Assembly (NCBI GenBank): GCA_016204695.1
Contig: JACQKD010000009.1
Location: 11,710 to 75,709 of the forward strand
DNA length: 64,000 nucleotides
Origin: Candidatus Kaiserbacteria bacterium
Lineage (GTDB): Bacteria > Patescibacteriota > Minisyncoccia > Phycocordibacterales > UBA918
Direction: 5' to 3'
The translations under genes were made by a program, and so were the position numbers. Below the pieces are notes generated by a model that ran no database searches, was not told where the DNA came from, and saw only the letters and a program-made list of their open reading frames with translations. Shown here piece by piece: positions 37,925 through 51,963 of the stretch. Positions within the stretch are counted from its first letter, which is position 1. Every line of letters starts with the position of its first letter.

Positions 37925-38785
37925 ATGAAAACATACAAACCAACATCAGCAGGACGCCGCGGCATGTCGGTGCTTTCCTATAAAGAGCACCTTTCAAGTA
38001 CGAAAAACGCCCCGCACAAGCCGCTGACGCGCGGCGGCAAATCGACCGGCGGCCGCAATCGCTTCGGACGCACGACCGCGTTTTATCGCGGCGGCGGTGT
38101 GAAGCGTACCTATCGTCTCGTTGACTTTATCTATAACAAAAAGGACGTTCCCGCCCGTGTTGAAAAGATCGAGTACGATCCGTATCACTCGGCCTTCATC
38201 GCGCTCGTCTGTTATCGAGACGGCGAACGCCGCTACATTCTCGCGCCCAAGGACATGAAAGTCGGCGACGAGTTCACCGTGTCCGCGACCGCCCGCACAA
38301 AGACCGGCAATCGCACCGTACTCGGCAACATTTCCGTCGGCACCTTTGTGCACAACATCGAGCTGAAGCCCGGAGCAGGCGCCCGCATGGCGCGCTCGGC
38401 CGGAAGCTATGCCGAAGTGGTCGCGCACGATGCCGGCTATACGCTCTTGAAGATGCCCTCGACCGAAGTGCGCCGCGTGCCATCCGGCGCATGGGCATCC
38501 ATCGGCGTTGTTTCAAACGATGAAAACCGCCTCGTCTCGTTGGGCAAGGCAGGAAGAGCGCGCTATCGGGGCTTGCGCCCGAAGAACCGCGGTACCGCTC
38601 GGAACGCCGTTGATCACCCGCATGGCGGCGGCGAGGGCCGCAGTCCTCGCGGTCACCGCCGTGAGCGCACCGTACACGGCCGCCCGACCGGCAAAGGACA
38701 GAAATCCCGCCGCCCCAAGAAGTATTCAAACAAACACATCATCTCCCGCCGCAAGCCCGGGAAGATCATGGGCGGAAAAAGATAA
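37925..38785 (+). CDS. rplB: 50S ribosomal protein L2
   Basis: Conserved L2 core with GRNxxG and HPHGGGEG. Confidence 0.95.
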   Translation: MKTYKPTSAGRRGMSVLSYKEHLSSTKNAPHKPLTRGGKSTGGRNRFGRTTAFYRGGGVKRTYRLVDFIYNKKDVPARVEKIEYDPYHSAFIALVCYRDGERRYILAPKDMKVGDEFTVSATARTKTGNRTVLGNISVGTFVHNIELKPGAGARMARSAGSYAEVVAHDAGYTLLKMPSTEVRRVPSGAWASIGVVSNDENRLVSLGKAGRARYRGLRPKNRGTARNAVDHPHGGGEGRSPRGHRRERTVHGRPTGKGQKSRRPKKYSNKHIISRRKPGKIMGGKR

Positions 38786-38822
38786 GAAAAATGCTCCCCG
38801 ACAAAGGGGAGCTTTTCTTATC
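38781..38822. terminator. 42-nt perfect palindrome overlapping the rplB stop (bidirectional intrinsic terminator), left edge of the island
   Basis: gataagaaaaatgctcccc-gacaaa-ggggagcttttcttatc. Confidence 0.5.
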
Positions 38823-38843
38823 TTTTTCCGAGCCGGAGCGATG

Positions 38844-38871
38844 TTTTTCTGCCCGTGCCGAGGCAGAAAAA
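38844..38871. terminator. second palindromic hairpin tttttctgcc-N8-ggcagaaaaa
   Basis: Read directly; 23 nt after the first hairpin. Confidence 0.4.
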
Positions 38872-39024
38872 CCGCGAGGCGTGGTCAAGGATGCTTAGTA
38901 GAATTTACGCGAAGCGGAAATTATACTTAGCAATCCGTGACGAAAGAGATAGTATCTCTTCCTATAAAAATACTACAGGCCACCAGGATACGCCCCGGTG
39001 GCCCGCGTTCGATTGGTCGACGCT

Positions 39025-39480
39025 TCAACTTCTTTCCCCTCGTCGCTCCTCTATTCTTGTCAGTACAGCGGCGGACCAGATCGCGGGAACGAATACCATG
39101 AGCGTCGGCATTCCCGCTGTGGTCAGATAAAGGTTTCCTGGCAGACTGACTTCACCTCTGAAATGCGCCCGTAGAGAGGTGCGAGTCCACGTCGAGATCT
39201 GATAGAGATTGTGGTATGGAGGCGAGGGGTCTCGACATGCGATTGTCAGCCGCTGGAAATCCTGACGTTGGTTACCGGTCAAAAACGGAACGTTACGCAG
39301 GAGTAGGTCTCGCATTCGCAGTCCCGTTACCTCGGCCATCTCGACGAGATCCACCCACTCCCGCCGTTCCAATCTGCCGATGAGTTCTTGGTCACTGCCG
39401 TGTGGAACAAACGGCAGAGTGTACCGCGCCGGCCGCACCTTTCTGGGCACTCGATCGATATCCATATCCATCATCTCCAT
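39025..39480 (-). CDS. hypothetical protein (151 aa), weak; possibly a remnant at the island edge
   Basis: ORF only. Confidence 0.2.
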   Translation of the reverse strand: MEMMDMDIDRVPRKVRPARYTLPFVPHGSDQELIGRLERREWVDLVEMAEVTGLRMRDLLLRNVPFLTGNQRQDFQRLTIACRDPSPPYHNLYQISTWTRTSLRAHFRGEVSLPGNLYLTTAGMPTLMVFVPAIWSAAVLTRIEERRGERS

Positions 39481-39641
39481 CCTCCTGCCGCATCTTGCGG
39501 CTCACTAGTCCATAGCCATAGGCGAACAACAAACTGGCGCGATACTGTCACAAAACCGTCCCGAACGCAAGATATCCGACAGTTATGCACTTGCACCTCT
39601 TGTGCTCGGCGGGGCAGATCATACCATGCACGTAACAGCCC

Positions 39642-42600
39642 ATGCACACTCTTCATTCTGCGCTCGGTGCGGGAATGACGCGGCATATCCGCGCAATGTC
39701 TGTCTTATTGTGTCTCCTTTTTCTCCTCGCCGCTCCGCGCATCGCCTCGGCGTATCTCGTTTTCAGCCAGAACCCGCCAAACGAAACATACAACGGCGCC
39801 ATGCTCGATAGCCCGTACCATTTTATAAGTTTCGGATGCACGCTCTCGCTCGACTGCGGAGTGGCGGGCGAGACAGTCTACCGCGTCGGCGTCTGGATGC
39901 AAAAAGTCGGCAGTCCGAAAGACGTGCGGCTCGATGTTGTCGGAGATTGGCAGGATATAAGCGGGACAAGCGCGGTCGCATCGACTCCGGTCTCGGCGGA
40001 CACAATTCCAAATGACGCCTATACGCTTGTGTGGTTTGATTTTCCCGAAGGAGTGGTGATCGGAGAGCGGGGCGCAAACAACCAGTTCTTCCAGTTTCAA
40101 TTCGCGGATGCGCCGGGGATGTATGACGCGGCCAACCATTACCGCGTCCTCTTTCATGAGACGAGCGACTTTTCCGGACCCGCGCAGTGGTGCAAAAAGT
40201 ACAGCGGCTGTTTCTCCTCGCAATTTTATTGGCAGATGGACGCCGGTCCGGTGCCGCAGGCACCGGACCAATTCTACGCGACCACTACCGCATCAGGCAC
40301 CGAGCAGTATGCGGACCACTTCGACGCAGACCCTTCGTGGAACACCGACCAACCCGAGCATTTTTCTTGGGACTCCGCGCGGCATGAACTGCGCGCGCAT
40401 ATGGAAAATACTCCACCCGCGTATCAACCCAATCGCTATTTTATAAAAGAGTTGGACATAGATCCGACCCAATCTTTCAGTATTTCGGCCGATCTCATGC
40501 TTGAAGATGCCCGCGGCGGCAATGGCGCCATACTCTTCGGACTCTTTGCGGACGACTTTACCCATGAAAATCTGACGCCGACGAACGGCCCGCGCATATA
40601 CAGCAAAAGCACGCTCAATCTCAAGCTCATGTCGCTTGGCGGGGGCAATCGCTTTTTTGAACTCAACGCTATCGGTCAGGATAGCGTACAGCAGGGCGGC
40701 GGAGGAAGCGGCCCCTCTTTTCGCCGCTACCGATGGTATACCTTTTATCTCCGCTATGATGCGGAAACCAAACACGTGTACGGGACCGTCATCGACACCA
40801 AGACCGGCCTGCCCTACATCTCGCTCGACGCCGACATGCCCGCAGGATTCTCGCCCGACATGCGCTATCTCGGTGTCAGCATGCATCCCGACGGCGAATT
40901 TCATTCAACCATGGCCGGAAGCGAACAGCGGCTCGCGGGCGCATCCGACTTCCGCATAGACAACGTCCGCGTTTTCGGCACCGCCTCCACCACTCCAACA
41001 CCCGCATGCTGTTCCAATATATTTTTCATCCCGGGCATTCAGGCGAGCCGATTGTATCTTGATGAAAATGGCAATGAGAATCGGCTCTGGGAGCCAAATT
41101 GGAGGACAGATATCAAAAAGCTCTTTTTTGATAAGAACGGGGAGAGCGTGACGCAAGGTATCTATACCAAAGATACGATTGATGCCGTATTCGGTAGGTC
41201 TGATATCTATGGCGAGTTTACTACTTCACTCGACGGTCTTGTGACGGATGGCACGATTGCCGACTGGCAAGCGTTTCCCTACGATTGGCGCAAGAGCGCG
41301 GAAGATGTTGTCGAAAGCGGCACTTCGATCAAGGTTGGCGATGATGTGCAGGTGGTGTATATGGCCGACGAGCTTCTCAATCTTGCCACCACCTCAAAGA
41401 GTGGAAAGGTAACCATTCTCGGCCACAGCAACGGCGGCATTGTTGGCAAACTGCTCATTGACGAACTGGTGCGCCGCGGTCATGCCGATCTCGTAGACAC
41501 ATTCATCATGGTCGCGACGCCCCAGCTCGGCACGCCGAAAGCGCTCGCGAGTCTTCTCCACGGCGACGAGCAGTCGATTCCGTGGGAGCACTTCGGCGTT
41601 GTTATGGACAAGAGCATGGCCCGCGATTTTGCGGAAACGATGCCCGGAGGGTACGCTCTCATTCCTTCGGCGAGATACATCTCAAGCGTGTCCGAACCGG
41701 TGATTGAATTTGATCCCGATGTTGCCGAGATTTACGACTTCCCATCGCTCTACGGTGATTCAATCGATACGCAGAGCGAACTACAGGAATTTCTCACGGG
41801 TGACAATGGCGGTCGCGCCAAACCATCCGAGGAAGATACCGACTCGCCAAATGTACTCGACAAGACACTCGTCGGAGAGGCATACACTCTGCACCGTCAT
41901 CTCGACTCATGGACTGCGCCGGAAGGCATCGAAGTGATTCAGATCGTCGGTTGGGGGCTCGATACCATCCGCGGCATCCGCTATGACGACTGCGACATAC
42001 TGCTGTGTCCTGATAATTTGGGTAACCTCGATAGGGAACTTCTTTTAGATACTGAAGGTGACGGAACTGTTGTAGCCGAAAGCGCAAGTGCCGCAACCGG
42101 AATGGAAACCTATTATCTAAAGTTACATGCTTATAACGATGGTACGGGAGAAAACAGAGACCACGCCGATTTTTTGGGAGCAAAACCAGTACAAGAACTC
42201 ATCAAGAACTTCGTACAAAATGGTACCAGTACATTACCGACATATGTCAGCCCCGAAAAACCGTCGGATACAAGTGACGAGCGCTTGCGATTCAGAATCC
42301 ATTCCCCCGTCTCTCTCGATCTCTATGACACGAAAGGCCGCCACACTGGCATTCTTCCGCCCGCACCAGATTCCGACCTGATGCGCATCGAAGCCGAAAT
42401 ACCCAACAGCTACTATCGCGAATTCGGAGAGGTAAAGTATGCGGGAGCGGGCTCTGGAGAGCCGGTTGGTGTTGTGCTCATCGGCCAAGACACTGGCACA
42501 TTCACGCTCGAGATTGAAGAGATTCGAGGAGATGCAGTGCAGGAGACAAGCGTATTTACGGACATTCCTGTGGTGGAAAACGCTCGCGCATCCGTTGAGA

Positions 42601-42998
42601 ATGTTGGCGGTACGGCGCCCCCTTCGCTCTCGCTCGACATGGATAATGATGGAGTCAATGACGCGTCGATCGCTCCGGGAGAGGGTCTGACCTCCCAAGA
42701 ATTGATCGGCATTCTCCGCGGTCTGATATGGACGCTTGATCTGCCGGTGGAGAAACAGAAGAAACTCGACAAGATCTTCGATACAATAGACAAGACGCTT
42801 ATCAAAGACCAGAAGTGCGTTGCACACGCAAAAGCCAAGTGCGAACACAATACCAAGCACAAGACCGATCAGGCATTTGCCAAGCTCTCGCAGTCAATAC
42901 AGAAATTATCCCGAGATAAAAAGGATGCGGTATCTTCGGAAGATGTGACCGACATACTGGCACTTATAAATCTCGTTAAAACTAATTTGAAAATATAA
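39642..42998 (+). CDS. large secreted multidomain protein with an alpha/beta-hydrolase (lipase/LCAT/PGAP1-like) domain
   Basis: N-terminal signal-like MSVLLCLLFLLAAPRIASA. Nucleophile elbow VTILGHSNGGIVGKLL with upstream FFIPGIQASRLY. A jelly-roll-like N-terminal region precedes it. The C-terminus has helical KK-rich repeats. Confidence 0.6.
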   Translation: MHTLHSALGAGMTRHIRAMSVLLCLLFLLAAPRIASAYLVFSQNPPNETYNGAMLDSPYHFISFGCTLSLDCGVAGETVYRVGVWMQKVGSPKDVRLDVVGDWQDISGTSAVASTPVSADTIPNDAYTLVWFDFPEGVVIGERGANNQFFQFQFADAPGMYDAANHYRVLFHETSDFSGPAQWCKKYSGCFSSQFYWQMDAGPVPQAPDQFYATTTASGTEQYADHFDADPSWNTDQPEHFSWDSARHELRAHMENTPPAYQPNRYFIKELDIDPTQSFSISADLMLEDARGGNGAILFGLFADDFTHENLTPTNGPRIYSKSTLNLKLMSLGGGNRFFELNAIGQDSVQQGGGGSGPSFRRYRWYTFYLRYDAETKHVYGTVIDTKTGLPYISLDADMPAGFSPDMRYLGVSMHPDGEFHSTMAGSEQRLAGASDFRIDNVRVFGTASTTPTPACCSNIFFIPGIQASRLYLDENGNENRLWEPNWRTDIKKLFFDKNGESVTQGIYTKDTIDAVFGRSDIYGEFTTSLDGLVTDGTIADWQAFPYDWRKSAEDVVESGTSIKVGDDVQVVYMADELLNLATTSKSGKVTILGHSNGGIVGKLLIDELVRRGHADLVDTFIMVATPQLGTPKALASLLHGDEQSIPWEHFGVVMDKSMARDFAETMPGGYALIPSARYISSVSEPVIEFDPDVAEIYDFPSLYGDSIDTQSELQEFLTGDNGGRAKPSEEDTDSPNVLDKTLVGEAYTLHRHLDSWTAPEGIEVIQIVGWGLDTIRGIRYDDCDILLCPDNLGNLDRELLLDTEGDGTVVAESASAATGMETYYLKLHAYNDGTGENRDHADFLGAKPVQELIKNFVQNGTSTLPTYVSPEKPSDTSDERLRFRIHSPVSLDLYDTKGRHTGILPPAPDSDLMRIEAEIPNSYYREFGEVKYAGAGSGEPVGVVLIGQDTGTFTLEIEEIRGDAVQETSVFTDIPVVENARASVENVGGTAPPSLSLDMDNDGVNDASIAPGEGLTSQELIGILRGLIWTLDLPVEKQKKLDKIFDTIDKTLIKDQKCVAHAKAKCEHNTKHKTDQAFAKLSQSIQKLSRDKKDAVSSEDVTDILALINLVKTNLKI

Positions 42999-43003
42999 AA
43001 GTT

Positions 43004-43405
43004 ATGGAAAGCAAAAAAAGAATCAATCAACTAATCATCGTAGCGGCGATTCTTTCTGTACTATTTTTCTTCCTATCCAGCCCGATAAAGAATGGTCTAT
43101 GCGCTGATACCGACATTAGTTGTGCTCGTTTGGGGGATAGTATTGGGATACCTATTTTCCTTTTTTCAATAAGTATTTTTATCCTGTGTGTATTGCTACG
43201 GTGGCTGTCTGCCGGCTTCCATGCATGGCTTCGGTTCGCAAAATACTATATTCTTGTTGCCGCACTTTTGATCACCGCTTCGCCGAGCGTGGCGACCACC
43301 ATCTTCGGCTTCGACAAAGAATTCATGTCCTGGGCTACGGCCGGCTTATTCCTCCTCGTCAGTCTGATACTCGTTGTTTATAAACAATTTAGGAAGAAAG
43401 AGTGA
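43004..43405 (+). CDS. small polytopic membrane protein (3-4 helices)
   Basis: Hydrophobic and AT-richer than its surroundings. Follows the hydrolase gene directly. Confidence 0.45.
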   Translation: MESKKRINQLIIVAAILSVLFFFLSSPIKNGLCADTDISCARLGDSIGIPIFLFSISIFILCVLLRWLSAGFHAWLRFAKYYILVAALLITASPSVATTIFGFDKEFMSWATAGLFLLVSLILVVYKQFRKKE

Positions 43406-43937
43406 TACTCGACATCCTATGCGAAATTTCTACCAATATCGTAAGTGGTTGGCGGTTCTCGCTCTTTCTTGCGGTATTCTAGCCGGATTAAGTACTCTTA
43501 TGTTTATTCCGTACGAAATGGGTCTGTGTCGGTACCACGATAGTCATTGTCGAGAGCGATATGAAAACAAAGGAGGAACTATTTTAGCGGTAACTTTTCC
43601 GGTATTCATACTGGGCTCATTTATATTCGTCCATACACGAAACGGTAAACGACCGTGGCGCATCTCACTTGTCATGTTGGGGTCCGTCGGCGCTCTTTCG
43701 GTTTTAGAAAATATCACTCATTCAGAAGGCGGTTTTGGTTTGTCGTTCCCATCTGAATTCGTTGTTCTTGCGATCATCTTGGGATTCGTTTACGGAGCAT
43801 ATCTCGTAAGTATGACGCTAAAAGAGTTGTTAGAGAGGAATCTCCTTTTTAGAAGAATAGGTGTCAAGACTCTGGCAGGTATACTCCTCACGCTGACTTT
43901 GGGAGTTTTCATGACTCTGGAATTCTTTTGGCTATAG
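43374..43937 (+). CDS. polytopic membrane protein (about 5 helices)
   Basis: Hydrophobic. Its start overlaps the previous gene. AT-richer than the flanking DNA. Confidence 0.45.
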   Translation: MFINNLGRKSDTRHPMRNFYQYRKWLAVLALSCGILAGLSTLMFIPYEMGLCRYHDSHCRERYENKGGTILAVTFPVFILGSFIFVHTRNGKRPWRISLVMLGSVGALSVLENITHSEGGFGLSFPSEFVVLAIILGFVYGAYLVSMTLKELLERNLLFRRIGVKTLAGILLTLTLGVFMTLEFFWL

Positions 43938-44165
43938 GGTCTCTATATCGTAGTATGATCTCGCTCGGCAAAAAGATCACGTCGAGGTTCTCTCCCGGTT
44001 TATTTCCAGTTCCTGGTGATGATACTCATCATATACAAACAAATTTGGGGCAGAGCGCAATAAAAGTGGGACTGTAGTACACTCATCGCATGTCCAAAGA
44101 AGCTGAAGATCGCCAGTGTCTCAAGAGGCCGCTTTTCTAGTCCTGCTGCAGATTTATTTTGGTAG

Positions 44166-45404
44166 TTGGAATTCCCTTCTTTCCGCCAGATGTCCAAGTT
44201 AGAACCCTTTATTAACATGCCACCAGAACAAAATAATCGTTCGTACGCGCATCTACCCGATGAACTGTTGGGAAAAATTCTCGAGAATGTCCCGCATACC
44301 GTCAACAAAATGAACAGCCTGTTCGATATCCAAGACGAACCTATCGCAAAAGGGATGGAGAAACTGCGGACCGGCGATAAAATCAAGAAGCTCTCCGCTA
44401 CGGAGGCCTCCAATTCGGTCATTGCTGTTGACGGAGGCAATATCCCCGAGAAAATGGCTGGCGCGGACGTGCTCCTAGCCGTTGCCGTCGGCGTTGAGGG
44501 TCTATCGGAGGATAAGGGTACGGAGTGGGGCAGCGAGAAGAATCAATACTACCAGTGGCAAACTGTCCTTCCTCACGGCGAAGCCAACGCACGTCTCATA
44601 CAAGGGGTGATGTTTTTGATGGAGTTATCGGTACTTGCGAACGACGACCATGAGATCCGTATTATGGACGGCACGCACTTCACGCCGATATTGAAGATAA
44701 ACAGCATGTTGTCGGCAAAGGAGGAGGGCGCGGGTGCTGAATACACGAACGCACTCCGGGACTTCTTGCGAGAAACCTACTCGAAAATCATCCCTGACAT
44801 CCCTCAAATCATTACGGCTGCACAAAACAACGAACACATCATTGCTCTTGCGAAGTACAGTTCGTCCACCGATGTCATCGACGCCTTCTTGAACGATTGC
44901 GATATCAAGCTCGACGACAAGACCTTCTTTTCTCTTGGCTTACAGGAGGATGAATACTTCGTGCCACATTCTGCCGGACAGAGTCCGCAGGAACGGGAGC
45001 GTATTTGGAACGAGCTGCACATCATCTGCAATCTCGATATACCCGAACGCGAGGAACTCAATTATGCGCTCGCCGCTGCAATTGAACCCATCAGGACGAA
45101 AGGCGGAAAAAAGTCAGAGCTCTACTACACCTACTATCGGCCATTCATGGACGGACCAGCATATCGCATCGAGCTCAAGAAAAGTGTCGCCGAAGACCAA
45201 TCCAAATTGGAGCGCTATCTCTTCAGCTTGAAAAACCAGATTGTTTTCCCCGAAATCCGCGAGCCATATCCTCAATATCTTGTCGACCTCATGGCAAAAA
45301 GTATCTCGACAGGCATGTTTGCAATCGTTGACGCCATTCGTCTCTCGCCCGATTTAAAAATTGACCAAGGTAAGTTCAATCTATTATTCTCATATCGCAC
45401 ATAA
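44166..45404 (+). CDS. NurA-like nuclease-domain protein
   Basis: Two DG(S/G/T) motifs characteristic of NurA (VIAVDGGNI and IRIMDGTHFTPIL). Translationally coupled to a HerA-like ATPase. The start is uncertain (alternative ATGs at about 44190 and 44217). Confidence 0.5.
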   Translation: MEFPSFRQMSKLEPFINMPPEQNNRSYAHLPDELLGKILENVPHTVNKMNSLFDIQDEPIAKGMEKLRTGDKIKKLSATEASNSVIAVDGGNIPEKMAGADVLLAVAVGVEGLSEDKGTEWGSEKNQYYQWQTVLPHGEANARLIQGVMFLMELSVLANDDHEIRIMDGTHFTPILKINSMLSAKEEGAGAEYTNALRDFLRETYSKIIPDIPQIITAAQNNEHIIALAKYSSSTDVIDAFLNDCDIKLDDKTFFSLGLQEDEYFVPHSAGQSPQERERIWNELHIICNLDIPEREELNYALAAAIEPIRTKGGKKSELYYTYYRPFMDGPAYRIELKKSVAEDQSKLERYLFSLKNQIVFPEIREPYPQYLVDLMAKSISTGMFAIVDAIRLSPDLKIDQGKFNLLFSYRT

Positions 45405-45406
45405 CT

Positions 45407-47221
45407 ATGGCAACTGAAAAAGAAAAGACAGCGAACTTCTCAGAGGAAATCCTTGAAGCAATAAAGAAGCAAGGCGATTCTCTCATTGGCATTACTGGCT
45501 CGCCAAGTACGACGCTCGACATCGTCATCGACATTGTCGAAAAGAGTAAGGCGCAGAGGGCTTTGGGCCAGATGGTTTATGTCGTAGTCAACGAAGACGG
45601 CCAAGACATTCTCGTTATAGGGCAAATCATCGGCATAGAGACGCAAAACCGATGGCATGAAGACCCTTCGTTCAAGGGTGTAATAAAGCGTCACGGGCGC
45701 CTCCCGCACTTGAGCGGTACGGCCGACAATCGCGTCGCTACAATCAGCGTGCAGGCCTGCTACAGCTTGGGGACCGAAACCCCGGAGGGTCATATCTTGG
45801 GAACTTCTCCTTCGACCGGCGAACGCGTACAGAAAATGAACAACGAGGTCATGTCCGCGTTGATGAAAAAGCACGACGGAATCACCTACATGGGTAAGGT
45901 GTACGGGACCGATGTCGATTTGCCGTTTTGGTTCAAGCACTTCGACAGGACCGACGAGAAGAACAAGGAAATTGGCGCGGGCGACGCGTATCACATAGGT
46001 GTCTTCGGCAGAACAGGCTCCGGTAAAACCGTTTCCGCGGCGTACATGCTCCTCGGTTATGCCAAAAACAAGAACAACATCAGCATCATGGTGCTTGACC
46101 CGCAACGACAATTCTTCGCGGATAAAGACCTGCTCCCACCAGACCAAAAGCTAGAGGACCACATTACCAAGACGGGAATGAAATATGAGAAATACGAAGT
46201 GCTGAAAGATATCTGTCTTCCGAGCGATAATTACGAGTTGTTTGGCGACTTGCTTGCGAACAACGGTTTCCTCGAGCTTGCCTTGCGTCCCTTGTACACT
46301 CCGGACAAAGTCGAAGCCGCGCGCGATGCTGTCATCGAGTATCTTCGCGGTCGAGCAAATGTACCGAGTTTCAATCTCAACTCGATTACCGACAAAACAG
46401 CTCTTCTTCAAGAGTTGCTGAATCGGTTTACAACGCCCACGGGTCCGCAGGAGACCAGCGCCGGCTACAGTTCCTATGTCATTTCAATATTTGGAACCAC
46501 GCAGACGCGCACACGCCTCCAAAATAGATTGGAGCATATTCGAGACCATCTCGCCACAGAGACGAACGTAGTCCGTAAATGGGGAAATGCTCTCGAGCTC
46601 TTTACCAAGACGCGAGCCGACAGTACGCAAAAGATGTCCGTGGAGGAGCTTGTGAAGAAAGTCGTACTGGAAAACGGGAATTTCATCGTGCTCGACATCA
46701 GCGGCACTCAAGTCGGCGAAATACAGAACGAAAACCTCCAAGCGGTTTTCATCAAGACGATTGAAGCGAAAATAGTTGAGCTTGGGGCGCAGCTCTATGC
46801 CGACGGTAAAAAAGCCAACTGTCTCATCGTTATGGACGAAGCGCACAGATTCATTTCCACTACGTCGCAAGACCCTCGCATCAAAGAACTCACGCAGGAA
46901 ATCATTGGCTCGGTCCGCACAACTCGCAAGTACGGCATCGGCTATATGTTCATTACGCAGACCATCGAATCATTGGACGACGAAATTCTGCGACAGATGC
47001 GAATTTTTGGTTTCGGATATGGGCTCACTTCCGGTTCGGAACTTCGGAAGGTCAGCGAGTTCGTAAACAATCCTTCAGCGATTCAGCTGTACAAGTCGTT
47101 CATCGACCCGAGTAGCAACCACAAATTCCCGTTCATGTTCTTTGGCCCGGTATCGCCCCTATCATTCACCGGCTCACCGCTTTTTATTGAAATGTACGGA
47201 GACGTAAAGGACTTCAGATAG
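45407..47221 (+). CDS. HerA/FtsK-like (DUF87) hexameric ATPase
   Basis: Walker A HIGVFGRTGSGKTVSAAYML, Walker B NCLIVMDEAHRF and FITQT sensor-like motif. 604 aa. Confidence 0.7.
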   Translation: MATEKEKTANFSEEILEAIKKQGDSLIGITGSPSTTLDIVIDIVEKSKAQRALGQMVYVVVNEDGQDILVIGQIIGIETQNRWHEDPSFKGVIKRHGRLPHLSGTADNRVATISVQACYSLGTETPEGHILGTSPSTGERVQKMNNEVMSALMKKHDGITYMGKVYGTDVDLPFWFKHFDRTDEKNKEIGAGDAYHIGVFGRTGSGKTVSAAYMLLGYAKNKNNISIMVLDPQRQFFADKDLLPPDQKLEDHITKTGMKYEKYEVLKDICLPSDNYELFGDLLANNGFLELALRPLYTPDKVEAARDAVIEYLRGRANVPSFNLNSITDKTALLQELLNRFTTPTGPQETSAGYSSYVISIFGTTQTRTRLQNRLEHIRDHLATETNVVRKWGNALELFTKTRADSTQKMSVEELVKKVVLENGNFIVLDISGTQVGEIQNENLQAVFIKTIEAKIVELGAQLYADGKKANCLIVMDEAHRFISTTSQDPRIKELTQEIIGSVRTTRKYGIGYMFITQTIESLDDEILRQMRIFGFGYGLTSGSELRKVSEFVNNPSAIQLYKSFIDPSSNHKFPFMFFGPVSPLSFTGSPLFIEMYGDVKDFR

Positions 47222-47225
47222 AGAG

Positions 47226-48404
47226 TTACTTATTTCGCACTAGGGCTTGATAGGTATTCTTGAAACCCTCTAATTCCTCTTCTGCATCGCGTATATAGCC
47301 AGCTGCTGTAAAGTCCTTATAGCTCACATCTCGCTGGCTTCTCGGGATAGCCCACCTTGTTTTCCAGCTGTCAGTAAGGTCCGTAATAGATCGCTTGATC
47401 CACTTCGGCTTTTTGTTGTGTCGTATGACCTCCTTGAGATTGTCTACCAAAGAGAAAAGATACACGCCACGCTTGATTGTATGCCGCGTTCCTTTTTCGA
47501 AGCCGATCATCTTCATTGCTTGATCGATGAGCTTGATCTTGCGAGACGGCCCCGATCCATAACCGCGAGCAGTATCGATATTTTTTGATTCCAAGTAGCG
47601 GAGCAAGTTTTCGTACATCAGGTTCGAGATATGGAAAGAGCCGATGCCGTTGCTGTAGCCGATAAAGTCGGCGACCATTTTTTCTTTGTACTTGAGACGA
47701 GCATAGATGCTACTCTTGCCGTAACCACCGGTCGTCGTGACGAAGAGTAATCGCGCAGGAATTTTACGCTTCTGCATTACGGTGCGGACCGTTCTATATT
47801 TTTTCTCGAAAGCACGACGTATCGTGTCGGAAGTGAGGAGACTAGCAACGAGTTTGCCGCCGAGGAGTTGATTGTATGGTGGAAGAGCACCAAGACGTTG
47901 CGCGCTTAGTGACTGATTGACCCAGTAATCCCGGTCCTTTGCAGAAATACCGAGGTGGCCATCTCGGACCGCCCAACTTAGGATTGGACTTTGAAGACCA
48001 ATAAGACCAATCGGGGCTTTATGGTAGCTGTCCCATACGAGAAAGCGCATCTGCCGACCGTAAGCGCGCTCATTCGGGAGGCTCCACCATACGAGACTCC
48101 ACCAGCGAAACATGATTTCCCATTTGCTACCGGCCTTGACCTCAATAAGTCGCGGCTTGATCTTGGCCACATTGATATCCTTACCGTTCGGTAAGTGTGA
48201 GAGGATGAACTGTTTGTGTTTCGTGACAAATTTTTCTTGAGCAAGAATGCGCTCGGCTTTCGCTATGATGTGCGCCTTACGTTTGGAGTCTCGGGTATTT
48301 TCTTTGAGCTGGATCACTCCGCTCCTTATACGGTAGCCTTGCTTATGCAGACTCCTGATGATTTCTCTTTTTAGTTCTTTAGATCTGGTAAGTGTCGATG
48401 GCAT
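47226..48404 (-). CDS. 392-aa protein of unknown function, convergent with the HerA-like gene (stops 4 bp apart)
   Basis: Clean ORF with a protein-like composition. No motif I can assign with confidence. Confidence 0.5.
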   Translation of the reverse strand: MPSTLTRSKELKREIIRSLHKQGYRIRSGVIQLKENTRDSKRKAHIIAKAERILAQEKFVTKHKQFILSHLPNGKDINVAKIKPRLIEVKAGSKWEIMFRWWSLVWWSLPNERAYGRQMRFLVWDSYHKAPIGLIGLQSPILSWAVRDGHLGISAKDRDYWVNQSLSAQRLGALPPYNQLLGGKLVASLLTSDTIRRAFEKKYRTVRTVMQKRKIPARLLFVTTTGGYGKSSIYARLKYKEKMVADFIGYSNGIGSFHISNLMYENLLRYLESKNIDTARGYGSGPSRKIKLIDQAMKMIGFEKGTRHTIKRGVYLFSLVDNLKEVIRHNKKPKWIKRSITDLTDSWKTRWAIPRSQRDVSYKDFTAAGYIRDAEEELEGFKNTYQALVRNK

Positions 48405-48550
48405 AGCTTTTTAGATTAGGTATCGTTGCATCTCCATTGTAGCTTTTTAGCAAGAGAACAGGTGATGAAGCACGTGGATACGCCTCCATACGCTAGTGTC
48501 AAGAGGTCATGTAAATAATTACTCAATTTTTGCCATATTGAGCACTACTG

Positions 48551-48579
48551 TTGATAACTCGCCTTGAGGGGTGTAAGAT
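48551..48579 (+). promoter_or_regulatory. sigma70-like promoter TTGATA-17-TAAGAT for the antitoxin gene
   Basis: Lies in the divergent intergenic region. The ATG at 48596 is 16 nt downstream of the -10. Confidence 0.35.
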
Positions 48580-48595
48580 ACGCTACTATTCAAGT

Positions 48596-49318
48596 ATGGC
48601 TTCTATGCTTTCAAAACTCAATATTAAAGCACTGCGGGAATCACACGGCATGTCGCAGGCGTATCTCGCCGAACGGCTTGGTATGTCTCGCCCGACCTTC
48701 ATAAAGGTGGAGAAAGGAGAACGGATACTGACTCGTCCTGAAGAGGAACGTGTCAGGGAGCTGTTCGGGATGGTTGATGAATTCACGAAAGCGACGGACA
48801 TACGCATCTCCGTACCGCAGAAGAAACTGGAGAAATTCAAACAGGTGCTCCTGTATGTGCTTGAGAAAACAGCCGGAAACCCGAAGATCGGCATGACCGC
48901 ACTCTACAAGCTCCTCTATTTCATTGATTTTGACTACTATGAAAAGTATGACCAGCAGTTGATGGGACTCACCTATATTAAAAATCACTATGGTCCAACG
49001 CCTCGCGAATTCGTGAAAGTGGTGGAGGACATGAAGCAGGCGGGCGATCTGGAAGAGGTGAGGAGTTCGTATTTTGCGTACGAGCAGAGAAAATTTCTTC
49101 CTCGCAAATCAGCAAACCTTGCGTCGTTAAGCGGCCAGGAGAAGGAGATGATTGATAGCGTCCTCGCACGATATGGTGATAAAAGCGCGACGGAACTCAC
49201 GCGGCTCTCACACGAGGATACGCCGTATGTGGTCGCGGAAGACGGGAAAAATATTGAGTACGAGCATGTGTTCTATCGTACCGACGGGTTCTCCGTGCGC
49301 GAGTATGATCCGCTGTAG
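48596..49318 (+). CDS. HTH-XRE + Panacea (DUF4065/SocA-like) domain protein, putative type II antitoxin
   Basis: N-terminal HTH LRESHGMSQAYLAERLGMSRPTFIKVEKGER. C-terminal ALYKLLYFIDFDYYEKYDQQLMGLTYIKNHYGPTPRE matches the Panacea/DUF4065 signature. Confidence 0.55.
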   Translation: MASMLSKLNIKALRESHGMSQAYLAERLGMSRPTFIKVEKGERILTRPEEERVRELFGMVDEFTKATDIRISVPQKKLEKFKQVLLYVLEKTAGNPKIGMTALYKLLYFIDFDYYEKYDQQLMGLTYIKNHYGPTPREFVKVVEDMKQAGDLEEVRSSYFAYEQRKFLPRKSANLASLSGQEKEMIDSVLARYGDKSATELTRLSHEDTPYVVAEDGKNIEYEHVFYRTDGFSVREYDPL

Positions 49319-49330
49319 GCGGTTGCACGT

Positions 49331-49669
49331 ATGAAATATGATGAGTTACACGAATTCTCGCGCGAATTGAAACGGCTTCGCAAAAAATACTTGACATTGA
49401 GCGATGACCTAGATGAACTGAAGCACACTTTGGCGAAGCTTACGATACAAGGCGGCGGGAAACACTGGACTTGTCTGCACCGAGAAGAGCGGGTGAGTAT
49501 CTATAAAATACGACTTGCGTGCCGATCTCTGCGGGCGACAACCATGCGAGTAATCTATGCACGTCATACGGATCCAGTCAGGATCGTTTTTATAGAACTT
49601 TATTACAAAGGCGAGAAAGAAAACGAAGATCGGGAACGTATCAAACAGTATCTTCTTGATACACAATGA
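49331..49669 (+). CDS. RelE/ParE(HigB)-superfamily toxin-like protein
   Basis: 112 aa. YKIRLACRSLRATTMRVIYARHTDPVRIVFIELYYKGEKEN resembles the RelE/ParE beta-core. Paired with the antitoxin-like gene 12 bp upstream. Confidence 0.4.
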   Translation: MKYDELHEFSRELKRLRKKYLTLSDDLDELKHTLAKLTIQGGGKHWTCLHREERVSIYKIRLACRSLRATTMRVIYARHTDPVRIVFIELYYKGEKENEDRERIKQYLLDTQ

Positions 49670-49877
49670 TAATGTGGTACTGCTCGGACCTGCCATAGAG
49701 GACAAGGATCTAGAGCACGAGTTCGTGCATGTGGAGCAGTTCGAGCGAGCGCCGTTCATATCTATGTTTTTGATGTGGATCGACAAGGCGAAAAACGGTA
49801 ATAGGTACAGTACGTATGAGGACGAAGCATATCGCCGGGCCGGCAATGTCTGGAAAGGCGAGGAGAAACGGAAGTGA
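49656..49877 (+). CDS. 73-aa ORF carrying an HExxH motif (HEFVHVEQ); possible remnant of a metallopeptidase
   Basis: Overlaps the toxin 3' end in another frame. No signal beyond the motif. Confidence 0.15.
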   Translation: MIHNDNVVLLGPAIEDKDLEHEFVHVEQFERAPFISMFLMWIDKAKNGNRYSTYEDEAYRRAGNVWKGEEKRK

Positions 49878-49892
49878 GAGGGTATAAAGGTA

Positions 49893-49928
49893 AAAGCCGG
49901 TGCGGACGTATGTCCGCACCGGCTTTTC
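49893..49928. terminator. palindromic hairpin aaaagccggtgcggac-gtat-gtccgcaccggctttt (bidirectional terminator)
   Basis: Read directly. Lies between convergent ORFs. Confidence 0.5.
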
Positions 49929-49943
49929 GCAAGCGTGCATGTT

Positions 49944-50210
49944 TCATTTGTCCTCCCACGGGGAGTTTTCCCGTATCCACTCTTCGACGTGTTGTGCGAG
50001 GGTGATAGCGACAAATGTCCAGAGAAGCGCAAGATAGGTTCCCATAGCCGCGTTCCCGAGTATGAGCCAGACTGACTTCAGCCATCTTGCACTTACGAAT
50101 ATCCACCCCACCTGGAAGAGTATGAAAACCGCAATGCTCGCCCATGCGAGCAAATGGACGAATCCGACCAAATGACCAATCCGCGGGACCTTCCGTCTTC
50201 GATCAGCCAT
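49944..50210 (-). CDS. small two-helix membrane protein (88 aa)
   Basis: Hydrophobic LVGFVHLLAWASIAVFILFQVGWIFV and LALLWTFVAITLA. Confidence 0.3.
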   Translation of the reverse strand: MADRRRKVPRIGHLVGFVHLLAWASIAVFILFQVGWIFVSARWLKSVWLILGNAAMGTYLALLWTFVAITLAQHVEEWIRENSPWEDK

Positions 50211-50377
50211 TACGACCCCCCTTGTTGCTCGGGTTATATCGAGTATGAACTACGGAACATGACTTGCGTGATAGTTTCATACTATGGTGTAGCTGGCAAG
50301 AAAATACCGCGCAAGTTAACTCGCATTTGAGACCCATACCATATGAGAATTCAAGGGTGGTGGACGCGAACAGGCGT

Positions 50378-50406
50378 TTGACAGCCCCTATGCTTTCGCG
50401 TACTAT
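50378..50406 (+). promoter_or_regulatory. sigma70-like promoter TTGACA-17-TACTAT about 120 nt upstream of rpsS (right edge of the island)
   Basis: Exact -35 hexamer, 17-nt spacer and a good -10. It would restart transcription of rpsS through secY after the insertion. Confidence 0.5.
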
Positions 50407-50526
50407 GCCTGCACAAAGCTCGAACGGGCTTTTTTGTTTGCTGGGCAGTGTTATATATGTAGGGTGCATATGTGACGCGGCCGACCGATCAAGCGCGGTC
50501 GCCAAGCGGGTGGCATACGTATCTTT

Positions 50527-50874
50527 ATGTCCCGGTCACTATATAAAGGACCATACGTCGACGAAAAATTGCTCAAGAAAGTGTTGAGCAAGAAGTCCCG
50601 TGAGGCGGGGACTATTAAGACGTGGGCGCGCCGGAGCCAGATCTCTCCGGAAATGGTGGGATATACCTTCGGAGTGCACAACGGCAAGGATCATATCGAC
50701 GTATTCGTGAGCGAGGAGATGGTGGGGCACCGGCTGGGGGAGTTCTCACCGACCACCAAATTTGTCCGCCACGGCGGCCAGATGCAGAAGGGTCTTGAGG
50801 CAAAAAAGAAGGAGGGCGAGATTGCGGCGGCGAAGGCCGCAAAGGCCGTGGCCACTCCCGCCAAGAAGAAGTAA
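50527..50874 (+). CDS. rpsS: 30S ribosomal protein S19 (with a Lys/Ala-rich C-terminal tail)
   Basis: [19 protein letters not shown]...[23 protein letters not shown]. Confidence 0.9.
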
Positions 50875-51237: not shown

Positions 51238-51963
51238 ATGACTCACATCGTCCATCCGTACATACACCGCCTCGGCGTCATCCGCGACTGGAAGTCTCGC
51301 TGGTTTGCGTCCGATCCGAAGAAGTACCGGGAGTATCTCCGGGTGGACCGGGGCATTCGCACCCTGCTTGAAAAGAAGCTTCGCGGCATGTACGTGGCGT
51401 CGATCGACATCGAGCGGGGCGACAAGATCGTGCGCATCGTCCTGCGGACATCGCGCCCCGGTCTCATCATCGGCCGTTCGGGAGAAGGTGCGGTGAAATT
51501 GAAAAAGGAGATCGATATGCTTCTGCGGACGCTCTCGCTCTCGGAGATCCCGGAGGTGAAGCTCGATATCGAGGAGATCCGCACGCCGGAATCGAACGCG
51601 ATGATCGTCGCGCAGATGATCGTCGAAGGACTTGAAAAGCATATGCCGTTCCGTCGCGTGATGAAGCAGACGGTCGAGAAGGTGATCGCCAACCGCGACG
51701 TCGAGGGCGTGCGGGTGATGGTCTCGGGCCGGCTCGGCGGGGCGGACATGAGCCGCACCGAGGAGCTCAAGCGCGGCCGCATCCCGCTCCAGACCCTGCG
51801 GGCCGACATCGACTTCGCGCGGGCGCGGGCGGTCGACAAGTTTGGCACGATGGGCGTAAAGGTCTGGATCTACCGCGGCGACATCTTCGCCGACCGCGCC
51901 AAGCGGAGTGAGGAACGCCCGGAGCAGCCGCGCGGCCGCTTCGAACACGCACGGACCCGTTAA
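51238..51963 (+). CDS. rpsC: 30S ribosomal protein S3
   Basis: KH domain and S3 C-terminal core. Confidence 0.9.
   Translation: MTHIVHPYIHRLGVIRDWKSRWFASDPKKYREYLRVDRGIRTLLEKKLRGMYVASIDIERGDKIVRIVLRTSRPGLIIGRSGEGAVKLKKEIDMLLRTLSLSEIPEVKLDIEEIRTPESNAMIVAQMIVEGLEKHMPFRRVMKQTVEKVIANRDVEGVRVMVSGRLGGADMSRTEELKRGRIPLQTLRADIDFARARAVDKFGTMGVKVWIYRGDIFADRAKRSEERPEQPRGRFEHARTR

Follow-up and report, generated by a model that had tools for sequence, protein, structure and literature searches.

We analysed a 64,000-nucleotide stretch of the genome of an ultrasmall bacterium, Candidatus Kaiserbacteria (assembly GCA_016204695.1, contig JACQKD010000009.1, positions 11,710 to 75,709 of the forward strand; hereafter the window), in which a gene coding for a large, putatively exported enzyme of the LCAT/LPLA2 lipase family is followed on the same strand by two genes coding for small membrane proteins (Table 1). 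A preliminary description of this DNA, based on the sequence alone, had placed three open reading frames (ORFs) here, and all three were found where it had put them. The large ORF (39642-42998, plus strand) codes for 1118 aa counted from its first ATG. Gene callers start it at M12 (39675) on the identical public contig (locus L002), which gives a 1107-aa protein (P0001), and ATG 39675 is probably the start in preference to 39642. The first small ORF (133 aa) begins 6 nt past the stop codon of the enzyme gene. The second (43374-43937, plus strand) would code for the 187 aa previously given if read from a TTG; however, the gene most likely starts at ATG 43419, just past the stop codon of the 133-aa gene, and codes for 172 aa, because an identical 172-aa protein (P0037) is present in the representative library. 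The GC content of the two small genes is 0.438 and 0.434, with a GC content at third codon positions (GC3) of 0.485 and 0.428, against a GC of about 0.56-0.63 and a GC3 of 0.68-0.85 in the flanking ribosomal-protein genes and a mean GC of 0.548 over the window. Within the large gene, GC3 is 0.66 in the N-terminal third, 0.57 in the catalytic part and 0.55 in the C-terminal part, leaving the two small genes with the lowest GC3 of the locus. The DNA of the membrane proteins had been described as AT-richer than its flanks, and since both GC and GC3 are lower this is more than an effect of amino-acid composition.

Pfam analyses assigned residues 520-817 of the large protein to the LCAT family (PF02450; E = 5.6e-13, 49.3 bits for a gathering cut-off of 21 bits), while DUF676, PGAP1 and DUF7379 gave sub-threshold matches only. 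A PF02450 match is also precomputed for all 12 database homologues of the enzyme, and a profile of these 12 homologues run against the sequences of the PDB retrieved LPLA2 (1.3e-4) and LCAT (8e-4) with the PYDWR, HSxG and DGDGTV motifs aligned. We modelled the enzyme with AlphaFold2 (AF2) on the 12-sequence homologue alignment and obtained a model that is confident for residues 445-1107 (predicted local distance difference test, pLDDT, of about 70-90). A Foldseek search of the PDB with this model returned LPLA2 at the top (4x97_A, E = 2.1e-11, template-modelling score on the target, TM-target, of 0.70), then LCAT entries (TM-target 0.60-0.66) and, more weakly, the effector Tle4 of a type VI secretion system (T6SS; 4r1d_A, E = 1e-8, TM-target 0.43) and a Bacillus lipase. 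The structural matches to LPLA2 and LCAT span about 450 aligned columns, suggesting, as far as the model goes, that the shared region exceeds the core fold of the hydrolases, into which cap and membrane-binding subdomains are inserted in the LCAT/LPLA2 family.

The putative nucleophile Ser596, whose motif formed part of the search pattern, was invariant in 86 of 86 aligned relatives. Asp807 and His841, both outside that pattern, were invariant in 87 of 87, and the YDWR motif was likewise invariant in the alignment of 86-87 relatives. His841 lies 34 residues after Asp807, a spacing that is 32 in both LPLA2 and LCAT. Because the Pfam, PDB-profile and fold matches and the invariant triad all agree, we assign the enzyme to the LCAT/LPLA2 family with an intact Ser-Asp-His triad; the family itself is known, and the catalytic domain is a new addition to it. 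The preliminary description had proposed a lipase-type α/β-hydrolase with such a triad and had read ILGHSNGGIVG as its nucleophile elbow. Structure prediction and alignment bear out the fold and the triad, and the elbow sits within the Pfam LCAT match. As in LPLA2 (PLA2G15) and LCAT, the PF02450 domain, PYDWR, a GxSxG motif (HSNGG), GDGTV and a triad at similar spacing occur together in an exported protein, and the window enzyme would likewise work at a membrane or lipid surface. It differs from both in being bacterial (Patescibacteria) and about three times larger, in adding a variable N-terminal module of ~420 aa, a C-terminal β-sandwich and a Lys-rich helical tail, and in being encoded in an operon with the gene of a protein with four transmembrane helices (4-TM protein); we know of no dedicated membrane partner of LPLA2 or LCAT. 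Neither NCBIfam nor PADLOC had a match for the enzyme or for the small proteins.

The enzyme begins with MTRHIRAMSVLLCLLFLLAAPRIASA, followed past the predicted cleavage point by YLVF, and this N-terminus has the charged n-region, hydrophobic core and AxA site of a signal peptide, the last being kept in close homologues as ASA, AFA or AAA. An N-terminal hydrophobic segment is present in 71 of 76 full-length relatives, and any further TM-like segment in only 4 of the 76. We therefore predict that the enzyme is exported by a Sec signal peptide and that it has no membrane anchor beyond this peptide, hence none of its own once the peptide is cleaved. Anchoring as a lipoprotein was considered and rejected, since no lipobox surrounds the signal-peptide Cys, a residue that homologues do not conserve. 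The region between the signal peptide and the catalytic domain had been called jelly-roll-like, a fold that could not be confirmed: residues 38-225 and 226-455 gave no Pfam match even at E ≤ 10, and the AF2 model of residues 1-444 has a pLDDT below 50 and scattered strands only. The alignment indicates that this region is swapped between relatives, the more distant of which hold β-helix (NosD/Beta_helix) domains in its place, and a metagenome scan found the window-type region in two further contigs only. It is best described, from these comparisons, as a lineage-variable module of ~420 aa, presumably for binding or targeting. On the other side of the catalytic domain, a β-sandwich kept in all 12 homologues ends in a calcium-site-like DxDxDG motif and is followed by a tail, present in nearly all relatives with a median length of 118 aa, for which AF2 predicts four helices at 1007-1106 (1107-aa numbering; pLDDT about 57-74). 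The signal-like N-terminus and the helical, lysine-rich tail of the preliminary description were thus both recovered.

A profile hidden Markov model (HMM), seeded with six ORFs lying downstream of the enzyme genes and iterated twice over all ORFs of the fetched loci, places both small proteins of the window, as divergent members, in a single unannotated 4-TM family (the partner family). Its members have four hydrophobic helices and an N- and a C-terminus rich in Lys and Arg, from which we predict an N-in/C-in topology. The first outside loop, of about 25 residues, carries a CX6C pair conserved in 84% and 83%, the second is about 12 residues long, and a Trp just past TM2 is conserved in 95% of the partners (W75 of the 133-aa protein, in the cytoplasmic loop). 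AF2 returned a four-helix model from a 10-sequence alignment (pLDDT 78.5), with which Foldseek found no significant match. Among 77 partner sequences, Pfam gave weak matches to DUF202 in only 12 members and no chaperone family; as all 12 matches fell below the cut-off, membership of DUF202 was not accepted. When 1.84 billion cluster representatives were searched exhaustively with HMMER, 1381 members were obtained at E ≤ 1e-3, nearly all of them stand-alone proteins of 120-160 aa. The NCBI annotation (HY416_02960, Candidatus Kaiserbacteria) covers just the last 70 codons of the 133-aa protein (43196-43405; P0021), so the family is probably under-annotated in public records. The 172-aa protein keeps the GLCxxxDxxC loop with its Cys pair and the Trp, and adds a fifth, C-terminal hydrophobic helix. 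Its best non-self match reaches 4e-8, its 14 best non-self matches do not include the 133-aa protein, and it is missing from the closest relatives of the locus (L001, L005 and L092), each of which has a single partner. The two membrane proteins described earlier are therefore both polytopic and of one family, but they represent one conserved partner and one very divergent extra paralogue.

A scan of one genome per species identified at least 491 relatives of the enzyme, the best 80 of which were examined. Nearly all of these 80 come from metagenome-assembled genomes (MAGs) named as Patescibacteria lineages (Parcubacteria, Kaiser-, Ryan-, Giovannoni-, Morani-, Nomura-, Taylor- and Liptonbacteria, Paceibacterota) or as unclassified bacteria, and one is named Patiriisocius; pipeline names such as 'Saccharibacteria' or 'Bdellovibrionales', attached to some relatives, were not trusted. 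Enough downstream DNA was available for 77 relatives, and in 68 of them a member of the partner family lies directly downstream on the same strand, at a gap of -60 to +136 nt that is 34 nt or less in all loci but one. The nine exceptions comprise four loci with nothing in the partner position and five with a different small ORF of 92-117 aa there. These five substitutes have two to three TM helices (L024 5206-5502, L035 12016-12306, L037 3125-3478, L044 11898-12194, L056 2479-2757) and may be analogous or very remote partners. In the reverse direction, P0015 (49% identical), the remote member P0025, and P0100 and P0160, two members picked arbitrarily from the exhaustive partner list, each directly follow a gene of the LCAT family, and none of these four partner-side look-ups revealed an orphan partner gene. 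Gene calls split the LCAT-like gene that precedes P0025 into two ORFs of 210 and 430 aa (L090 394-2385), which could reflect a frameshift, a pseudogene or an assembly error.

Partner genes occur in tandem at some loci, fourfold in L011, threefold in L055 and twofold in L016, L069 and the window, and some genomes hold several copies of the enzyme (L017; L011 and L032, which come from one MAG). Taken together, enzyme and partner appear to constitute a conserved two-gene operon across Patescibacteria, to which the window adds one divergent partner copy. The functional link between the two genes, judged from sequence, is supported as well as gene context allows: the membrane proteins had been tied to the enzyme before, and the neighbours of orthologues, looked up in both directions, revealed no unlinked orthologue. 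A scan of viral contigs found no relative of the enzyme, and a phage origin was accordingly rejected.

Table 1. Features of the enzyme-partner locus and of the surrounding ribosomal-protein operon (positions in the window).
Feature	Position	Strand	Basis or remark
Sec signal peptide, probable	39675..39752	+	MTRHIRAMSVLLCLLFLLAAPRIASA, predicted cleavage after ASA
Clade-specific N-terminal region, β-rich	39753..41006	+	residues 38-455 (1118-aa numbering)
LCAT/LPLA2-type α/β-hydrolase domain	41007..42221	+	about residues 456-860; FIPG...SRLY strand, PYDWR, HSNGG elbow, GDGTV
Predicted nucleophile Ser596 codon (S585 in 1107-aa numbering)	41427..41429	+	aligns with HSMG of LPLA2 and HSLG of LCAT
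Predicted catalytic Asp807 codon (GDGTV)	42060..42062	+	aligns with DGDGTV of LPLA2 and DGDDTV of LCAT
Predicted catalytic His841 codon	42162..42164	+	34 residues after Asp807
C-terminal β-sandwich ending in DxDxDG	42279..42674	+	AF2 strands 869-999 (1107-aa numbering), pLDDT about 75-88
Lys/Glu-rich tail, four helices, ~100 aa, then stop codon	42693..42998	+	AF2
Partner gene 1, 133-aa 4-TM protein	43004..43405	+	family HMM, conservation, hydropathy
Partner gene 2, 172-aa divergent paralogue	43419..43937	+	family HMM, E = 2e-16
L3	36126-36785
L4	36793-37539
L23	37549-37908
L2 (rplB)	37925-38785
Inserted foreign-looking DNA, about 11.7 kb	38786..50526		GC about 0.50 vs window mean 0.548
151-aa ORF between rplB and LCAT-like gene	39025-39480	-
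NurA-like nuclease	44166-45404		Pfam 1.2e-9
HerA-like ATPase	45407-47221		DUF87; PADLOC mad8 6.6e-16
DruA, lone, convergent	47226-48404	-	DUF4338; PADLOC 2.4e-89
Helix-turn-helix (HTH) + SocA/Panacea-domain protein	48551-49318		Pfam 4.5e-19
112-aa ORF after HTH-Panacea gene	49331-49669		no family match
S19 (rpsS)	50527-50874
L22	50887-51222
S3	51238-51963
L16	51973-52392

The S10 ribosomal-protein operon encloses the locus, which sits between rplB and rpsS on an island whose genes we assigned by Pfam and PADLOC. The 151-aa ORF that precedes the enzyme gene had no Pfam, NCBIfam or PADLOC match and, among the fetched loci, a homologue in the identical contig L002 only; L001 has an unrelated 183-aa plus-strand ORF in its place. 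A terminator-like hairpin readable on both strands (38793-38812) directly follows rplB and a strong 14-bp hairpin (38975-39006, minus strand) follows the 151-aa ORF, so the operon beyond rplB presumably depends on a promoter of its own. Beyond the partner genes, no other Druantia genes accompany DruA, and the NurA/HerA/DruA set is therefore not a canonical system. L001 and L005 share highly conserved versions of both the HTH-Panacea gene (phmmer 1e-147 to 1e-144) and the 112-aa ORF (about 1e-63), which probably code for a PanA-type antitoxin and a toxin of no known family, adjoining rpsS.

L001 and L005 have the layout of the window, that is, rplB, the LCAT-like gene with its partner, variable cargo, the Panacea pair and rpsS. 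The cargo of L005, whose enzyme is 51-58% identical depending on the alignment, consists of DUF5678, an aspartyl-protease-like ORF and an N4/N6-methylase with HinfI, and in L092 (enzyme 64% identical) rplB, the LCAT-like gene and the partner are followed by the end of the contig. Across these loci both ends of the island are thus conserved, the left one carrying the LCAT pair and the right one the Panacea pair, and it is the defence systems between them that are swapped. The S10 operon, which in bacteria normally ranks with the most stable gene arrays, is split in this clade by a defence-swapping island of ~8-12 kb; a literature search on insertions into this operon found nothing relevant. ARAGORN found no tRNA gene in the window. 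Upstream of the ribosomal-protein genes, on the minus strand, lie genes for a FIST-domain protein, a response regulator and a histidine kinase.

Apart from this S10-operon clade, none of the other 80 relatives adjoins rplB or rpsS. We surveyed the wider neighbourhood by running Pfam on 129 ORFs just downstream of the pair at about 65 loci. The commonest families were L10 (12), L7/L12 (6), PaaX_M (6), MgsA (3) and tRNA synthetases, with few methylases, and the secretion-system and polymorphic-toxin families VgrG, PAAR, Hcp, Rhs and LXG were absent from the 25 most frequent; the contexts inspected one by one agreed with this. The LCAT-like gene sits directly upstream of rplJ-rplL in 12 of the roughly 65 loci, whether the partner is present or not (for instance L035, L044, L051, L056 and L066), which makes a second, independent tie to a ribosomal-protein operon. 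In one unrelated lineage (L096 6921-12398) the pair follows dcw genes and precedes an EcoRI-like methylase, a weak PBECR3 match and GmrSD/HNH. Defence-type genes may thus land repeatedly on the downstream side of the pair.

Characterised members of the LCAT/LPLA2 family move an acyl chain of a phospholipid either to water, acting as phospholipase A, or to a lipid alcohol in an acyl-CoA-independent transacylation. The reading that we favour, with a probability of about 0.5, is that the window codes for a Sec-exported phospholipase A or transacylase that its 4-TM partner retains or restrains at the membrane of the producing cell and that harvests or remodels exogenous lipids. Because the processed enzyme would have no anchor of its own, its retention or parking by the membrane partner is the simplest reading, and one that allows for self-protection as well. 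At the cell surface, the partner would hold or restrain the exported enzyme, plausibly through the β-sandwich and the helical tail of the latter, and the lineage-variable N-terminal module would bind the surface of a host or neighbouring cell. The catalytic domain would then deacylate or transacylate exogenous phospholipids, by hydrolysis or by acyl-CoA-independent transfer, which would provide lysolipids and fatty acids, or remodelled scavenged lipids, to a cell thought to be unable to make its own. The partner may in addition shield the bilayer of the producer from the enzyme, an immunity-like role that is compatible with this scheme. Family membership, the triad, the export signals, the lack of any other anchor, the gene pairing, the distribution of the recovered relatives and the housekeeping neighbourhoods are read from the data; contact between the two proteins, the identity of the lipid substrate, the way in which the reaction runs and a nutritional role are inferred. 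The preliminary description had offered a surface enzyme attacking host membranes as its alternative, and this fits the locus better than the effector/immunity label that it had put first.

A nutritional role of this kind would have a conceptual parallel in VolA of Vibrio cholerae (PMC3656444), a surface lipase/lysophospholipase making external lipids usable. VolA is an outer-membrane lipoprotein of another lipase family, with no 4-TM partner, in a Gram-negative bacterium that makes its own lipids.

Several observations weigh against the lipid-harvesting reading. The identity of the enzyme to LPLA2 and LCAT is only 13-17%, the proposed lipid substrate follows from family membership, and α/β-hydrolases switch substrate easily. 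The outside loops of the partner, of about 25 and 12 residues, offer little docking surface, and both the tandem copies (twofold to fourfold) and the low GC3 of the partner genes fit immunity genes better than a structural anchor. The tail, moreover, persists in relatives that have no 4-TM partner and is just somewhat shorter in L051 and L066, loci without any TM neighbour; as a candidate docking element, it differs only weakly in length between loci with and without a partner. A disulfide between the tail of the enzyme and the loop of the partner was rejected as a general mechanism, as the CVAHAKAKC pair occurs in 5 of 80 relatives.

The points just made about tandem copies and GC3 lead to the alternative that survives best, although we consider it somewhat unlikely: a toxin/immunity pair, in which the exported lipase would lyse the membranes of a host or competitor, the 4-TM proteins would solely neutralise it at the membrane of the producer, and the extra divergent partner copy would be an additional or orphan immunity gene. 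Pore-forming colicins do have small polytopic membrane immunity proteins, tandem arrays like those of two to four partners seen in some genomes, and like the extra copy in the window, are common for immunity genes, and the adjacency of the two genes is strict, often with an overlap. T6SS Tle-Tli modules likewise combine an α/β-hydrolase lipase with an adjoining cognate gene, sometimes in tandem, and with the idea of self-protection; Tle4 of the Tle4-Tli4 complex (4r1d_A) is a significant structural neighbour of the enzyme, albeit with a fold match much weaker than that of LPLA2 (TM-target 0.43 against 0.70), and a PF02450 lipase has been noted in a vgrG island of the Pantoea ananatis T6SS (PMC3942780). 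However, the pair considered here has mainly housekeeping genes as neighbours, no T6SS or specialised secretion genes (VgrG, PAAR, Rhs, LXG) being among the most frequent families; its enzyme has a Sec signal peptide, and PADLOC recognised neither enzyme nor partners. The known Tli proteins (Tli1-5), soluble proteins of the periplasm or lipoproteins, act as plugs of the active site, whereas the partner crosses the membrane several times and has outside loops of only about 12-25 residues. The pair looks like a vertically conserved, usually single-copy operon present in many lineages and in housekeeping neighbourhoods rather than a patchy, variable cassette, and none of the four partner-side look-ups uncovered an orphan. 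What remains of the effector/immunity label is thus the cognate adjacency, the tandem partners and the likeness to Tle4, while no secretion or toxin context was seen among the commonest neighbour families, the partner is unlike Tli and the operon is widely conserved. Should the pair be a weapon with its immunity protein after all, it would represent a new type, one that depends on Sec and whose immunity protein is polytopic.

The same conservation in many lineages, and the core genes that adjoin the pair (rplJ-rplL at 12 loci, dcw in L096, tRNA synthetases, the S10 operon), would also suit a housekeeping enzyme of the envelope, namely a transacylase that remodels the cell's own membrane lipids or that, working from the outer face, adds acyl groups to or removes them from a lipoprotein or a polymer of the envelope, with the 4-TM protein presenting the substrate or serving as membrane subunit. 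LCAT, LPLA2 and PDAT are indeed transacylases that have no need of acyl-CoA. We nevertheless hold this to be improbable, as the N-terminal module is swapped between lineages, which is more typical of binding to variable external targets, and as several enzyme copies occur in some genomes (L017; L011 together with L032).

It is very unlikely that the partner is a dedicated folding or secretion helper comparable to Lif, a membrane protein needed only to fold or release the lipase. The gene order is that of the classical lipA-lif pair, a lipase gene followed by that of a membrane protein, and the LipA-Lif/LipH systems of Pseudomonas and Burkholderia resemble the window in coupling a secreted lipase to a membrane-anchored helper; the start of the partner gene 6 nt after the lipase gene and the strict pairing would be in keeping with this. 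Lif, however, crosses the membrane with a single TM helix and embraces the lipase with a large helical domain in the periplasm, while the partner forms a bundle of four TM helices joined by very short loops, nearly all of it membrane-embedded, which has no sequence similarity to Lif and no significant match to any Pfam family, lipase chaperones included. Marginally less likely still is a hydrolase acting on a non-lipid ester (a polyester or an acetylated polysaccharide) whose likeness to LCAT is one of fold only: the 13-17% identity to LPLA2 and LCAT, the β-helix N-terminal domains of relatives, common in carbohydrate-active proteins, and the name 'pimeloyl-ACP methyl ester carboxylesterase' given to relatives by the Joint Genome Institute (JGI) would agree with it, but the family-specific PYDWR and GDGTV are invariant, beyond a generic GxSxG, and the structural matches cover about 450 columns of LPLA2/LCAT, exceeding the core fold.

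The lipid-harvesting reading bears on a gap in the physiology of these bacteria. Most Patescibacteria have no lipid synthesis, and, according to a 2024 perspective, no mechanism of lipid uptake or breakdown has been identified in them (PMC11665869). Candidate phyla radiation (CPR) cells are enriched in lysolipids, which a phospholipase A can generate, and lipidomics points to lysolipids acquired from neighbours (PMC7242380). In Vampirococcus, a secreted phospholipase has been proposed to serve lipid acquisition (PMC8080830). Our literature searches on LCAT in Patescibacteria and on Southlakia transposon sequencing with lipases found nothing relevant, and none turned up a report on the multidomain architecture, the obligate pairing with a 4-TM family or the restriction of the recovered relatives to Patescibacteria.

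The Patescibacteria (CPR), among whose ultrasmall cells the gene pair recurs, make up a very large share of bacterial diversity, and most of them appear unable to make fatty acids or phospholipids. LCAT/LPLA2 is the one well-studied family that moves phospholipid acyl chains without acyl-CoA, and the locus offers a concrete, clonable candidate in which a putatively exported enzyme of this family is coupled to an unannotated membrane family with about 1400 cluster representatives, so that the lipid question of the Patescibacteria becomes testable through the enzyme-partner pair. A bolder version, which we regard as rather unlikely, is that the pair is the lipid-acquisition machine of the Patescibacteria: the enzyme, an acyl-CoA-independent transacylase, would dock on its partner in the symbiont membrane, take acyl chains or lysolipids from host phospholipids and deliver them to, or re-esterify them into, the bilayer of the symbiont, and the 4-TM protein would serve as an acceptor site, an entry port or a safety catch. 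If true, such a machine would explain both the high lysolipid content of these cells and their ability to build a membrane although they do not synthesise fatty acids.

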